From positions 4,297-68,296 of the forward strand of contig CANQNL010000002.1 in assembly GCA_947625215.1 (NCBI GenBank): DNA of 64,000 bases, in the 5' to 3' direction. This DNA comes from an uncultured Bacilli bacterium (GTDB taxonomy: Bacteria > Bacillota_I > Bacilli_A > RF39 > UBA660). The notes under the pieces are model-generated. The model had not been told where the DNA came from, did not search any database, and saw only the letters and a list, made by a program, of their open reading frames with translations. Below are positions 2,645 to 34,458 of the stretch, one piece after another (the first letter of the stretch is position 1; each line of letters begins with the position of its first letter). The translations under genes were made by a program, and so were the position numbers.

Positions 2645-4162
2645 ATGGAAACAAATTCAACTAACAAACTTATTATAATTACTAAAAATAAAGGTATAAA
2701 ATTTTTAAAAGGTGATAAATCTTTATTTACAAAATACAGTTATTTTCAAGTAATTAATGCATATAAGAATCTTTTTGTTTGTGATGAAGATACTATAGAC
2801 GAAATAAAAAAGAATATTGAAAATAAAATAAAATTAGGTTTTTATAGAAAATCCTTTCAAATAAAAGATGATGTTACTGACGATAACTTGTTTGAAGCAA
2901 TATGTAATAAAATATGCAAAAAATATGGTTTGTGTGGGAAAACACTACAGGAAAAAGAGGAGCAAATAAAAATTATAAAATACCATCATCATATCTATAA
3001 TCCTAACACTTTGTATACAGATTTTATCAGAATGTATAAATTCGAACATGAATTAAGAATGTTACTATTAAAATACACTTTGATAGTAGAAGAAAGTATA
3101 AAGAATATTTTCATTTCTTATCTTAATGATAAAAATGCTGAGCCAAATTATCTTGTTAATATGGATAATTATAATACTAACTCTTTAAAATCAAAATCTT
3201 TTGACACAATGAAGTTAATAATTGATAAATATGACAATCAAAAATCAAAACCAATAAAGAGGAAAAGAGATCAACACTTAATTGTTCCATATTGGATTAT
3301 TATTAATGAATTAGCTATGAATCAAACTTACTATGCAATAGCTAATTTGAATTCAAATGATTCAAATAAGATATTTTTAAAATGTTTAAATTTTTTTACT
3401 AATCTTAATTTATCCGAAGAAAAAAAAGGAAAAGCTACAAAACAGATAACTTATGAACGGAAAATGGTTAATAATTTCAAAACCTTATTATGCTATTTAG
3501 GCGAATTTAGAAATATGTTGGCGCATAATCAACCAATATATTGTTATAACGTATTAAACTATAGTATTAATGGTAATCCAAAGTTTGAATATGAGTTACC
3601 ATTAGCAAATCCCGAATATAAAGATAAATATAATAATAAAGTGCCTATAGAAAAACAACAAATAAATATAATGGGATCTCTAATGAATAGTTTGAAAGAA
3701 TATTTTGGTAATGATAATTTTAACTCAAATAATTCTACTAAATTAGATCTTTCAAAAATAATATATATTTTATATAAACTGCTAAAACATATTGATAAAA
3801 ACACTAATTTTTATACTGAATTGGTAGAAATATATTCAAAATATAATATAATTTTAAGTAAATCAGTCATTGAAGTCAAAAATCCTAAAAAAATTAATGA
3901 AATTAAAAATATTATTTCAGAACTATCTACATATGATATGGAAATACCTAATCTTATTGAAAAAATTGAATCTGGTAAAGCATATAAAATGAGTTTAAAA
4001 TCTAAGAATAAACAATTAGAAAACCTAATAAAACAAATTAATCTTATATCCAAAAGTATTAATGTTAATGAAATTAAATCTAAGTATAAACACTTCCCTG
4101 CAGCAAAACGATATACTGAATTTACAGGAATAAATGCAAATTTTTTTACTAATATAAAATAA
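2645..4162 (+). CDS. Abi_2 (AbiD/AbiF-like) abortive-infection family protein with a long K/N-rich C-terminal extension
   Basis: 505 aa. The N-terminal ...KGIKFLKGDKSLFTKYSYFQVINAYKNLF and the central LGEFRNMLAHNQPIY resemble the conserved Abi_2 blocks (the R-N-x-x-A-H motif). The last 170 aa or so are low-complexity and coiled-coil-like. It is a lone plus-strand gene among minus-strand housekeeping genes. Confidence 0.65.
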   Translation: METNSTNKLIIITKNKGIKFLKGDKSLFTKYSYFQVINAYKNLFVCDEDTIDEIKKNIENKIKLGFYRKSFQIKDDVTDDNLFEAICNKICKKYGLCGKTLQEKEEQIKIIKYHHHIYNPNTLYTDFIRMYKFEHELRMLLLKYTLIVEESIKNIFISYLNDKNAEPNYLVNMDNYNTNSLKSKSFDTMKLIIDKYDNQKSKPIKRKRDQHLIVPYWIIINELAMNQTYYAIANLNSNDSNKIFLKCLNFFTNLNLSEEKKGKATKQITYERKMVNNFKTLLCYLGEFRNMLAHNQPIYCYNVLNYSINGNPKFEYELPLANPEYKDKYNNKVPIEKQQINIMGSLMNSLKEYFGNDNFNSNNSTKLDLSKIIYILYKLLKHIDKNTNFYTELVEIYSKYNIILSKSVIEVKNPKKINEIKNIISELSTYDMEIPNLIEKIESGKAYKMSLKSKNKQLENLIKQINLISKSINVNEIKSKYKHFPAAKRYTEFTGINANFFTNIK

Positions 4163-31346: not shown

Positions 31347-32420
31347 CTACTTGCCGTGTACTTCCTTTTCTTTTAATTTAATAAATAATCCTTTAAAATG
31401 TTTTCTTACAAAATTAATAACATTACTAAACCATATACAAAGAGTTATGTTGTTTAATTTCATCGGTATAACTAATATCTTAAATTTTACTGATAATGAT
31501 TTAGCATTTTTTAAAGCTTCTTTCGTATATTTATGATTTAAAATATATTTTGTTTTTTCTCTTACTTCTTTTTTAGTTAAATTTTTATTGTCAGCTAATT
31601 CTTGAATACACTGAAACACACGACCTATAAAATATGAATCAATAGCATCTCTACTTTTTTCATCATCTAACATATTCCAATGTTTATAGAGTTTTAAAAC
31701 GTGTTCATAATGTTCAATTCTTTTTTCAAACATATTAGGATCACTATAATTTATCATTGTTTCTGCACCTTTTCTTGAACGATACCAATGATATTTAGCC
31801 ATTGAAGATACGACTACTTTACCTATATCCATTAAAAAAAACATATTAAAATGATGATCATCCCATTTGGTATCTGGAAAAATTATATTATTTTTGACAA
31901 CAATTTCTCTTTTAAAAAGCTTGTTCCAAGGTAAACTTAAAAAACTGTTATTAAAATATTTATAAGCATTTTTGCGGAAATCATTTTTATTTGTATATAT
32001 AGCATCTTCACAAGAGGTACTGTAGGTTATTGTTTTTCCATTTTGATAATATTCCATTAAAAATCCAGTAACTACTAAATCAGCATTATTATTTTTAGCT
32101 AGTTCATACATTTTTTCTAAATAATCTTTTTCAATCCAATCATCTGAATCAATAAAGTATAGATATTCTCCTTTAGCTTTTTTTAAAGCTGCATTTCTAG
32201 CAGTTGGTGCGCCGCCGTTTTCTTTATGAATAGCTGTTACTCTTTTATCTTTTTTGGCATACTCATCACATATTTTTCCACTATTATCCTTAGAACCATC
32301 ATCAATGACGAATAATTCAATATCTTTAAATGTCTGATTTAAAACGCTTTCAATTGCTTTTGATAAAAATTCTTCAACATTGTAAACCGGCATTATAATG
32401 GAGATTTTTCCTTTTTCCAT
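31347..32420 (-). CDS. Family 2 glycosyltransferase (first gene of the left operon)
   Basis: ISIIMPVYNVEEFL, VIDDGSKD and IDSDD motifs. The start was set at ATG 32420, which has RBS AGGTGG 5 nt upstream. The track start at 32429 is a GTG inside that RBS. Confidence 0.85.
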   Translation of the reverse strand: MEKGKISIIMPVYNVEEFLSKAIESVLNQTFKDIELFVIDDGSKDNSGKICDEYAKKDKRVTAIHKENGGAPTARNAALKKAKGEYLYFIDSDDWIEKDYLEKMYELAKNNNADLVVTGFLMEYYQNGKTITYSTSCEDAIYTNKNDFRKNAYKYFNNSFLSLPWNKLFKREIVVKNNIIFPDTKWDDHHFNMFFLMDIGKVVVSSMAKYHWYRSRKGAETMINYSDPNMFEKRIEHYEHVLKLYKHWNMLDDEKSRDAIDSYFIGRVFQCIQELADNKNLTKKEVREKTKYILNHKYTKEALKNAKSLSVKFKILVIPMKLNNITLCIWFSNVINFVRKHFKGLFIKLKEKEVHGK

Positions 32421-32454
32421 TTTTTCCACCTACTATTTTTACAAATTTTATAAT

Positions 32455-32493
32455 TAATAATGTGATTAAAAAAATATCTCTGAATATTTAATT
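32455..32493. repeat. IRL: left 39-bp perfect inverted repeat of the recombinase cassette
   Basis: TAATAATGTGATTAAAAAAATATCTCTGAATATTTAATT is the exact reverse complement of 33617..33655. Confidence 0.95.
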
Positions 32494-32506
32494 CAAAGAT
32501 ATTTTT
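32466..32506 (-). terminator. Terminator hairpin after the recombinase gene, formed half by IRL and half by cassette-internal sequence
   Basis: Minus-strand RNA forms AAAAAUAUCUUUGAA / UUCAGAGAUAUUUUU: a 15-bp stem with one G-U pair and a 7-nt loop, followed by Us. The 5' arm is internal (32492..32506) and the 3' arm lies in IRL. Confidence 0.5.
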
Positions 32507-32520
32507 TATTTAATGTATGG

Positions 32521-33462
32521 TTATGCCATCATATATTCAACTAAATTTTCAATGGAAGTTTTTTTAAATTCATCAGATGGGTGGGCGTATAAATTAATGG
32601 TAATATCAACACTTGAATGACCTAATATTTCACTTAAAGTTTTAAAATCCATTTTTGATTCAAGTGATCTAGTAGCAAAAGTATGTCTTAATGTATGAAA
32701 ATTAGTATATTTAAGATTAGCTTTCTTCATTATTCTTTCAAAAAACCTTCTAAATTGTCTTGGATCATATAAAGATTTGCTTTTTGATAAAATAAAATCT
32801 TCATTTGAACCTTTAAATTTTAATAAATAGTCTATAATAAAATTAGAAATTGGTATTGTTCTAATTGAAGTTTCACTTTTAGGTGTACTTTCAATTAAAA
32901 TGGTTTTTGATTTTATATTAGGGTTTTCATTATAAATTCTTTCAATTGTCCTGTTAACTGTTACAGTTTTATTATTAAAATCAATATCTTCCCATTTAAG
33001 ACCACAAACTTCTCCTATACGAAGTCCAGTATAAAGGGCAAGCAATAAACAAGCTTTTCTAATATTTGGCTTTTGATATAATACTTTTTCTAATTTTATT
33101 TGTGATTCTTTTGATAAAACACATACTTGTTTCGCTCTTTTTCGGATTTTTAAATTTGTTAAATCAATGTTTTTACACATATTTTTTTTAACACCAGTTT
33201 TTAAAGCAGCCTTAATAATATAAAGTAAAGTTTTTTGAACTGAAATAGATACTTTTTTCTCATTTAAGCTATTAAAATATAAAATAATATCATTAGCAGT
33301 AACTTTCTTTGCTCTTTTGCCAGCAATATTACCTTTAATATATCTTTCTATTAATTGTTCATACTTTTGCCTTGATTGAATTTTTATATCATTTTTTGTT
33401 TTTACCCACATATTAACGACATCTAAAAAACTTTTTTTCTCCCATAACATTAACTTATGCAT
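32521..33462 (-). CDS. Tyrosine site-specific recombinase (phage-integrase family)
   Basis: 313 aa from MHKLMLWEKK, with RBS AAGGAGG 7 nt upstream. Catalytic pattern: YTGLRIGE (Arg), HTLRHTFAT (H-x-x-R) and LGHSSVDITINLYAH (His/Tyr). The track's 38-codon N-terminal extension is rejected. Confidence 0.85.
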   Translation of the reverse strand: MHKLMLWEKKSFLDVVNMWVKTKNDIKIQSRQKYEQLIERYIKGNIAGKRAKKVTANDIILYFNSLNEKKVSISVQKTLLYIIKAALKTGVKKNMCKNIDLTNLKIRKRAKQVCVLSKESQIKLEKVLYQKPNIRKACLLLALYTGLRIGEVCGLKWEDIDFNNKTVTVNRTIERIYNENPNIKSKTILIESTPKSETSIRTIPISNFIIDYLLKFKGSNEDFILSKSKSLYDPRQFRRFFERIMKKANLKYTNFHTLRHTFATRSLESKMDFKTLSEILGHSSVDITINLYAHPSDEFKKTSIENLVEYMMA

Positions 33463-33512
33463 ATTTTTACCTCCTTTATTTTGCCCCATATTTACTTCTT
33501 TTTTCTTCCAAA

Positions 33513-33541
33513 ATATTACAATATGCAACTTTTTGCAACAA
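33513..33541 (-). promoter_or_regulatory. Candidate promoter of the recombinase gene (TTGTTG-17-TAATAT)
   Basis: The minus strand reads TTGTTG caaaaagttgcatattg TAATAT, about 50 nt upstream of ATG 33462. Confidence 0.35.
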
Positions 33542-33580
33542 AATTTATGAATTTTCGACAAATTTATAAAAAACATAGTA

Positions 33581-33594
33581 TTTTATGGTATAAT
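33581..33594 (+). promoter_or_regulatory. Outward-facing extended -10 promoter (TTTTATGGTATAAT) inside the cassette, aimed through IRR at the right operon
   Basis: TGGTATAAT lies at 33586..33594, 22 nt inside IRR. The identical 14-mer TTTTATGGTATAAT precedes recF at 60004..60017. Confidence 0.55.
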
Positions 33595-33616
33595 ATTGCT
33601 ATGTGATTTGCCCTGA

Positions 33617-33655
33617 AATTAAATATTCAGAGATATTTTTTTAATCACATTATTA
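33617..33655. repeat. IRR: right 39-bp perfect inverted repeat of the recombinase cassette
   Basis: AATTAAATATTCAGAGATATTTTTTTAATCACATTATTA is the exact reverse complement of IRL. Confidence 0.95.
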
Positions 33656-33678
33656 GTTTAGAAAAAATAGGTGAAAGT

Positions 33679-34458
33679 ATGCATAAAGATATAAAAATAA
33701 TCATTGCCACTCATAAAGAATATAAAATACCAAATGACAATATGTATCTTCCTTTATACGTTGGAAGTAAAGGGAAAAAGAACATAGGTTATAAAAGAGA
33801 TGATACTGGTAAAAACATTTCTTTAAAAAATCCATATTTTTGTGAATTAACAGGTTTATATTGGGCCTGGAAAAATCTAAAAGTAGACTATATTGGTTTA
33901 GTACACTATCGTAGGTATTTTTCTTCTAAAAAGAAAAATAAAGATAAATTTGATTCTATTTTAAAAAGAGAAGAATTGGAAAAATATTTAAATGAATATG
34001 ATATAATCGTTCCTAAAAAAAGAAAATACTATATCGAAACAATTGAAAGTCATTATAAACATACAATGAAAGAAGAAACTTTAGAAGAAACAATAAAAAT
34101 TATAAATGAAAAATATCCTGAGTATGTTAATAGCTTACAAAAAATAATGAATAGAACTTATATGCATGCTTTTAATATGTTTATTATGAAAAAAGAATAT
34201 TTAGATGAATATTGTACTTGGTTATTTGATATTTTATTTGAATTAGAAAAAAGAATGAAAAATAAAGAATATGATGCTTTCCATTCTAGATTCTATGGAA
34301 GAATAAGTGAAAGATTATTAGATGTTTGGCTAGATTACAAGGGTTATAAATATAAGGAAGTACCATTTATGTATATGGAAAAAATAGACTGGATAAAGAA
34401 AGGAACTGGCTTTTTAAAAGCTAAATTTCTAGGTAAAAAGTATGACAAAAGTTTTTAA
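33679..34458 (+). CDS. DUF4422-family glycosyltransferase-like protein (first gene of the right operon)
   Basis: 259 aa. IIIATHKEY...DDTGKNISLKNPYFCELTGLYWAWKN...GLVHYRRYF matches the DUF4422 pattern. Confidence 0.7.
   Translation: MHKDIKIIIATHKEYKIPNDNMYLPLYVGSKGKKNIGYKRDDTGKNISLKNPYFCELTGLYWAWKNLKVDYIGLVHYRRYFSSKKKNKDKFDSILKREELEKYLNEYDIIVPKKRKYYIETIESHYKHTMKEETLEETIKIINEKYPEYVNSLQKIMNRTYMHAFNMFIMKKEYLDEYCTWLFDILFELEKRMKNKEYDAFHSRFYGRISERLLDVWLDYKGYKYKEVPFMYMEKIDWIKKGTGFLKAKFLGKKYDKSF

Follow-up and report, generated by a model that had tools for sequence, protein, structure and literature searches.

A probable palindromic crossover site as candidate split terminator of the recombinase gene in an invertible promoter cassette of an uncultured gut Bacilli bacterium

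We analyzed a 64,000-nucleotide stretch of DNA, named here the window, from an uncultured Bacilli bacterium (RF39, UBA660; GenBank assembly GCA_947625215.1, contig CANQNL010000002.1, positions 4,297 to 68,296 of the forward strand), whose genome is a 1.2-Mb metagenome-assembled genome (MAG) with 25% GC and 92% completeness. The window carries a ~1.2-kb cassette bordered on both sides by 42-nt inverted repeats (IRs), named IRL and IRR, and placed between two divergent glycan-biosynthesis operons, which extend from 32420 to ~12255 on the minus strand and from 33679 to ~47925 on the plus strand. The local GC content is 24.5%. The cassette encodes a tyrosine recombinase, as testified by a Phage_integrase match (1.1e-29) and a conserved catalytic R/HxxR/H/Y region, and its stop codon occupies 32521-32523 on the minus strand. 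The subject of this report is a 39-nt palindrome located just past this stop codon, which very likely serves as a recombination core site and may also end the recombinase transcript. The features of the locus, in window coordinates, are as follows.

32469-32507, minus strand: 17-bp palindrome with a 5-nt loop, the predicted core site at the recombinase end; its minus-strand RNA is a terminator-like hairpin
32468-32474, minus strand: U7 of the recombinase transcript, corresponding to A7 on the plus strand; of these seven U residues, six are able to pair with the upstream A6
32452-32493, no strand: IRL, comprising the outer flank, the outer binding element, the spacer and 2 nt of the inner arm, 98% complementary to IRR
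33617-33658, no strand: IRR, the 42-nt partner of IRL
32521-33462, minus strand: tyrosine recombinase gene (313 amino acids and a stop codon), with a GGAGG ribosome-binding site upstream
33584-33594, plus strand: extended -10 promoter TATGGTATAAT, directed outward to the right operon from the cassette end opposite the recombinase-end IR
33604-33618, plus strand: degenerate inner arm of the promoter end, TTGCCCTGAA versus TATCTCTGAA, with 7/10 matches and a spacing 1 nt longer
31347-32420, minus strand: GT2 glycosyltransferase gene, first of the left glycan operon, which the hairpin would shield from recombinase read-through
33679-34458, plus strand: DUF4422 gene, first of the right glycan operon, which gets the promoter in the assembled orientation

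At the DNA level, the site is composed of the outer element TATCTCTGAAT, the spacer ATTTA and the inner element ATTCAAAGATA, each arm being lengthened by an A6/T6 tract, and it is detected as a local inverted repeat of 17 nt (32469-32485 / 32491-32507, 94%) with the arms 5 nt apart. The corresponding minus-strand RNA, AAAAAAUAUCUUUGAAU-UAAAU-AUUCAGAGAUAUUUUUU-UAAUCA, starts 13 nt past the recombinase stop codon and forms a 17-bp stem with one G-U pair, one further U bringing the terminal tract to seven. The 5' arm is internal to the cassette (32494-32507) apart from 2-3 nt, and the 3' arm lies within IRL. A first-pass annotation of this DNA had described an AU-rich stem of 15 bp with one G-U pair, followed by Us, with a 5' arm mostly internal to the cassette and a 3' arm in IRL; this description holds in all its parts, the stem extending to 17 bp around a 5-nt loop and including only two G-C pairs.

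The hairpin is stable in every version that we folded. The 91-nt RNA around it reaches -18.6 kcal/mol (z = -5.25, with 0/200 shuffles equally good) and the 47-nt RNA -16.1 kcal/mol (z = -6.81, again 0/200 shuffles equally stable). The bare 17-bp hairpin has -15.6 kcal/mol, the 15-bp version of the first-pass annotation -14.7 kcal/mol, and the core stem devoid of its A/U tracts still has -10.0 kcal/mol, with U7 directly 3' of it. All recombinase-end values, from -10.0 to -18.6 kcal/mol, are thus stronger than the -8 kcal/mol that the annotation had set as the limit for termination. The plus-strand RNA of the same DNA carries a C-A mismatch at the position of the G-U pair and has -11.4 kcal/mol. 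The junction sequence is unchanged in an independent assembly from another sample (L114). A search of the whole 1.2-Mb genome for hairpins whose stem has 15 bp or more, with one mismatch allowed, gave 53, versus 3-5 in shuffled genomes.

The opposite end of the cassette is different. Its degenerate inner arm leaves the promoter transcript with a stem of 5 bp only, and the plus-strand RNA of the junction 33600-33646 folds with -3.8 kcal/mol (z = -0.05), as expected from the earlier claim that the internal flank of IRR lacks a complement. To obtain the inverted orientation, the segment 32494-33616 was reversed in silico. In this arrangement, the recombinase transcript ends in the same hairpin, whose 3' arm now comes from IRR, and the promoter transcript, crossing IRL, is again without hairpin; the re-creation of the arrangement after inversion, which had also been proposed, is therefore reproduced in silico. 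Likewise, the proposal of a cassette with a promoter end and a terminator end stands for the window, where the recombinase end has the sole strong hairpin and its U7 tract, but this asymmetry is no rule of the cassette family described below.

Several further observations concern the promoter end. Its inner flank ATGTGATT shows complementarity with the outer flank of the IR, AATCACAT (33601-33608 / 33643-33650), and the promoter transcript may form a GUGA...U7...UCAC helix bracketing the site, possibly a 5' stabilizing stem; an analogous bracket is seen at 1337-1347 / 1293-1302 of L031, a paralogous cassette of the same genome. A contig from another sample, L113, whose positions 1-107 correspond to window 33572-33678, represents a strain variant with TTG for TGG before TATAAT and consequent loss of the extended -10 TG. 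It shows the inner arm GCTCTGAA in place of GCCCTGAA, which gives one extra match to the binding element, and the contig breaks 45 nt inside IRR. Outside the IRs, the operon leaders 32421-32451 and 33659-33678 are still similar up to their ribosome-binding sites (77%), so either operon, on receiving the promoter, would have an almost identical 5' untranslated region. An Rfam search of 32300-33800 gave no match at E values up to 1.

Tyrosine-recombinase core sites such as loxP, FRT and dif consist of two inverted binding elements around a crossover spacer. On the strength of its homologs, the palindrome is predicted with high confidence to be the core or crossover site of the window's recombinase, built on this same plan. 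A genome search revealed two paralogous cassettes in the same genome, L031 and L032, with recombinases 66% and 61% identical to that of the window, and ~30 further homologous cassettes were found in public genomes at 42-60% identity, mostly in "uncultured Bacilli" MAGs from rabbit, mouse and human gut. The close family set was defined as the 25 cassettes with placeable flanking IRs (recombinases 42-66% identical), which provide 50 sites. At both ends of these 25 cassettes, the IR is made up of an outer arm TATCGTAKAAY, a spacer of ~5 nt and a less perfect inverted inner arm. The window arms TATCTCTGAAT / ATTCAAAGATA align with this family motif, and so do GGTCCTAGAAC of L031 and TATCGTAGAAT of L032. 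In most family cassettes, one IR starts 0-8 nt past the recombinase stop codon or overlaps it, and an outward TGnTATAAT-like motif is present 9-23 nt inside the promoter-end IR in 20/25 cassettes and at the recombinase end in 0/25. The spacer of the window site lies within the 42-nt IR and is shared by both partner sites, which fits the strand-exchange requirement of tyrosine recombinases.

Both promoter states are represented among the related MAGs. The promoter is directed toward the target in L034, L040, L048, L056, L061 and L062, and toward a static terminator in L035, L037-L039, L042-L045, L047, L049-L051, L053, L059 and L063, which suggests, as good indirect evidence, that inversion takes place in the family. 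The core-site architecture is conserved in ~25 close and ~34 distant cassettes, and a hairpin-forming sequence is consequently expected at this position, terminating or not. This core-site nature of the palindrome is what the first-pass annotation did not consider in its overall interpretation, which is supported in part, as regards the promoter and recombinase ends, the lone strong hairpin and its rebuilding.

The family as a whole comprises ~30 self-contained cassettes of ~1.1 kb (L031 on G000 contig 28, L032 on G000 contig 21, and L033-L063), each with a tyrosine recombinase, an extended -10 promoter and palindromic IRs. Their targets include priming sugar transferases, a Big_2/List_Bact_rpt surface protein, zinc-ribbon proteins and a HerA-like ATPase. 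The three cassettes of the host genome (window 32469-32507, L031 2413-2450 and L032 1373-1411) differ in their arms, TATCTCTGAAT, GGTCCTAGAAC and TATCGTAGAAT, respectively, and such distinct sequences would keep the three switches from cross-recombining. The promoter end of L031 has two tandem copies of the site (1244-1281 and 1304-1333), in a ~60-nt unit that includes ATGTTGTGTG and an A-run; with a total of three sites, two alternative inversions are possible in this cassette. In L032 and L034, the distance from the recombinase stop codon to the site is ~85 and 84 nt, respectively, and the imperfect IR reaches 60-100 nt inward. These two cassettes have an outward TGnTATAAT-like promoter at both ends (TGTGATATAAT and TGTTATAAT in L032), so that inversion would exchange two promoters and not switch one on or off.

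Palindromic IRs, of the form TTTCGCAGAAT-n5-ATTCTGCGAAA and variants, also border more distant recombinases of Clostridia and Enterococcus (L065-L110, 33-46% identity), the upstream IR being located 330-400 nt before the recombinase gene. These elements suggest a very wide superfamily of invertible elements that carry their recombinase in cis. One of them, L079 (recombinase ~35% identical), has 140-nt IRs at 2321-2462 / 3598-3739 that include the 5' ends of two prepilin-like genes directed outward (MKKNKKGFTLIELL...), as does L096; in both, a TTGACA-type promoter is found on the 3' side of the recombinase gene, a different, Hin-like layout.

The hairpin of the window carries several traits of an intrinsic terminator: a stable stem-loop, a U-tract directly 3' of the stem and a position just past a stop codon. 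Since the consensus terminator scan demands at least three G-C pairs, we wrote a scan calibrated on this genome, which looks for a hairpin closing directly before at least six U residues in 8 nt and counts hits at or below -8 kcal/mol. Such terminator-like matches are found at 18% of operon-end or convergent gene ends, versus 1.6% of operon-internal ends and 0-0.2% of intragenic control windows. The recombinase hairpin (core -12.0 kcal/mol, tail TTTTTAAT) ranks 19 of ~870 gene 3' ends. Most long hairpins of the genome consist of an A-tract, an AU-rich stem and a T-tract, in the style of bidirectional terminators, and the window site is identical in style. The Rho RNA-binding domain (Rho_RNA_bind, PF07497) has no match in the 92%-complete genome, while 9/14 control genomes were positive; intrinsic termination is thus probably the sole way to end transcripts in this genome. 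For comparison, mean terminator hairpin energies of about -8.4 to -8.9 kcal/mol in mycoplasmas and about -15 kcal/mol in Bacillus subtilis are quoted in PMC2268961 from de Hoon et al. (2005). By the standards of its own genome, the window hairpin is a strong terminator candidate.

Comparison with the family sites points the same way. The inner arms of the family typically match ~8/11 positions at either end, indicating that a perfect palindrome is not needed for recombination, while the recombinase-end inner arm of the window matches 10/11 positions as DNA and 11/11 as RNA and is extended by the A6/T6 tracts to 17 bp. Among the 50 sites, this one ranks second in stability and first in the quality of its U-tail. 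Its lone non-Watson-Crick position gives G-U in the RNA of recombinase sense and C-A on the other strand, as in L055; as evidence for a terminator, this placement is weak, being expected about one time in four by chance. The recombinase-end site of L031 forms a perfect CCUAGAAC/GUUCUAGG stem followed by UCAUUUUUUU (U7), with -13 kcal/mol and z = -4.8, its arm sequences being different from those of the window, and the two tandem sites at its promoter end have one inner-arm mismatch each and z values of about -1. Site-embedded hairpins with a U-rich tail are also present at the recombinase end of L055 (-11.6 kcal/mol) and L062 (-12.5 kcal/mol). In the terminator scan of the 25 cassettes, none of the promoter-end site hairpins reaches -10 kcal/mol, and the only match, that of L037, is weak (-6.4 kcal/mol).

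These data lead us to propose that the core site in this cassette has probably also been adopted as a putative terminator of the recombinase gene. In a self-contained invertible promoter cassette, the 39-nt palindrome 32469-32507 would be the core site at the recombinase end, lengthened here to a perfect A6-stem-U7 hairpin that would act as intrinsic terminator of the recombinase mRNA. The 5' arm would move with the recombinase gene, and the 3' arm and the U-tract would come from whichever IR adjoins, so that the terminator would be rebuilt in both orientations and would keep recombinase transcription out of the glycan operon not receiving the promoter. Because the promoter-end inner arm is degenerate, promoter transcripts would pass the same U-tract without forming the hairpin. 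In a toggle with two targets, a static terminator is impossible outside either IR, as the promoter must read through each IR in one orientation; a terminator split between the cassette interior and the IR avoids this problem. The insulation model of the first-pass annotation is coherent in this respect. The structure, its asymmetry between the ends, its rebuilding in silico and its homology to the recombination sites of the family are demonstrated, and we infer that termination at the hairpin and inversion at this locus probably occur. On balance, a core site lengthened into a hairpin that also ends the recombinase mRNA seems to us the best explanation of the whole.

A number of observations weigh against a terminator role of the palindrome. 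Its stem has two G-C pairs and one G-U pair, fewer than the classical expectation of at least three to four G-C pairs, and the consensus scan, with its requirement of at least three, does not call the hairpin; the long gene-end hairpins of this genome are similarly AU-rich. A palindrome at this position is expected for recombination alone. The better inner arm is at the recombinase end in 7 of the 25 cassettes, at the promoter end in 8, and the two are equal in 10, so a palindrome always better at the recombinase end was rejected as a family rule. In single-target cassettes, the promoter-end hairpins are often the more stable, and the promoter-end site of L037 reaches -11.1 kcal/mol (45-nt fold) and has a U-rich tail. 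The promoter-end hairpin of the strain variant L113 is also stronger, at -8.1 kcal/mol. Most relatives have one target on one flank and a separate, static, canonical terminator just outside the other, e.g. AAAAGGAAUAUGA...UCAUAUUCCUUUU, and the site-embedded design is therefore not general to the family. In many "off" cassettes, the recombinase gene leads through the site into the ribosome-binding site of the target with no terminator, which means that insulation from the recombinase is not universal. The 34 distant cassettes have few site-embedded terminators, with no preference for either end (2 recombinase-end and 3 promoter-end cases), and we rejected them as a general trait of the wider recombinase superfamily. 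Finally, two short contigs from other samples, retrieved by look-ups of both flanking genes, show the native orientation only. An exact-protein look-up of the recombinase gave no record, a metagenome pattern scan with the left flank and IRL gave 0 matches, and one with the 23-nt IR core gave a single chance match, inside an unrelated coding region.

Such observations could be accounted for by a palindrome that is a recombination site only, its RNA hairpin being a by-product that terminates weakly or not at all, with read-through into the adjacent operon tolerated, as seems to be the case in most of the family. We consider this possible but rather doubtful. It agrees with the plan of two binding elements around a spacer that is conserved across the family, with the many cassettes that pass from stop codon to site to target ribosome-binding site without terminator, with the poverty of the stem in G-C pairs and with the lack of a family-wide asymmetry between the ends. 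However, it leaves aside that the window site is far longer and more perfect than the family sites with their ~8/11 inner-arm matches, that U7 follows the stem directly, that the hairpin stands within the top 2-3% of gene-end terminator-like structures, the genome having AU-rich terminators and no Rho, and that L031 and L055 show the same design with other sequences. The converse, an ordinary gene-end terminator overlapping the IR by chance, with recombination elsewhere in the 42-nt IR and arms that do not bind protein, is improbable. The hairpin does resemble the other bidirectional terminators of the genome, and the IR does reach ~17 nt past the outer arm, but the arms align with the family binding elements (RTCNYWGAAY / TATCGTAKAAY) and share with them the ~5-nt spacer and the location with respect to the stop codon, and the IR of the relatives is essentially the palindrome alone. 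A functionless chance palindrome would find some ground in the AT-rich composition of the locus (24.5% GC), but the stability of the hairpin against the shuffles (z = -6.8, 0/200), the excess of long hairpins in the genome (53 versus 3-5), the identical sequence in a second sample and the homologous sites across the family make it barely credible, and the shuffles and the family comparison effectively rule it out.

More broadly, and with greater reserve, the core site may have become a split, portable intrinsic terminator that keeps the cassette strictly one-sided in a gut bacterium lacking Rho, within a family that would have two solutions to read-through: a static terminator outside the cassette where there is one target, and a site-embedded one where no static place exists. 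The window is the only clear case with two targets, as the second target of L031, located 175 nt from the site, is truncated by the end of the contig, and with one clear case the sample is too small to judge whether the site-embedded terminator is a mark of two-target toggles.

If the hairpin terminates, one 39-nt element would be at once the DNA crossover site and the RNA transcription stop. This would explain the mutual exclusivity of a one-promoter toggle between two surface-glycan operons of 14-20 kb, even with the recombinase gene pointing into the "off" operon. It would also provide a design rule for natural and engineered inversion switches, in which a terminator split across the recombination site follows one cargo gene. 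In uncultured gut Bacilli, the family of recombinase and promoter cassettes seems to govern both surface polysaccharides and proteins of the surface, and such control has a bearing on phase variation in the gut microbiota.

The cassette can be compared with several known systems. The H-segment of Salmonella is an invertible cassette of ~1 kb with its own recombinase gene, hin, and an outward promoter. Hin belongs to the serine invertases and depends on an enhancer and Fis, and a single operon is turned ON or OFF by the promoter, which is located 3' of hin; we know of no description of a terminator embedded in its recombination site. The window cassette thus shares with it a recombinase and an outward promoter within ~1 kb but differs in the type of recombinase and in the layout. 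In loxP, FRT and dif, the spacer must be identical in both partner sites, and these sites are not, to our knowledge, known to double as transcription terminators. Unlike them, the window site has A6/T7 tracts next to its arms and follows a stop codon at a distance of 13 nt. The hairpin is similar to the bidirectional terminators of low-GC Bacillota and Mollicutes in its modest AU-rich stem and long T-stretch, and its -10 to -16 kcal/mol are within their range, but those terminators stand alone whereas the window hairpin is split across the recombination crossover point.

In Escherichia coli, fimE has a "detachable" terminator that requires Rho and is present only in phase OFF (Joyce and Dorman 2002 and Hinde et al. 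2005, both cited in PMC2784873). This terminator, like fimE itself, is located outside the invertible segment. The fimS/fimE system resembles the window in that the fate of the 3' end of the recombinase transcript is tied to the adjoining invertible element. It differs in that the window genome has no detectable Rho and in that the window hairpin would be independent of orientation for the recombinase. The closest parallel to a terminator formed at the junction is offered by cwpV of Clostridioides difficile, for which a 9-bp stem and a poly-U tract have been predicted where the left IR meets the inversion region; this structure depends on the internal sequence that adjoins the IR, is limited to the OFF orientation and ends the leader transcript (PMC2784873; Emerson et al. 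2009). In both systems, a terminator-like stem-loop is made from one IR together with segment-internal sequence, and cwpV is likewise inverted by a tyrosine recombinase, RecV. The cwpV promoter, however, lies outside the switch, whereas the window cassette contains both its promoter and its recombinase gene. The cwpV terminator is placed in the leader of the target, forms in one orientation and is the ON/OFF device; the window hairpin forms in both orientations and would end the transcript of the recombinase, its proposed role being insulation and not switching. Our literature search, in a limited collection and thus no proof of novelty, found no paper on this cassette family or on a core site doubling as a terminator. 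The principle of a terminator at an IR junction is already known from cwpV, and the window presents a new arrangement of it, an incremental advance.

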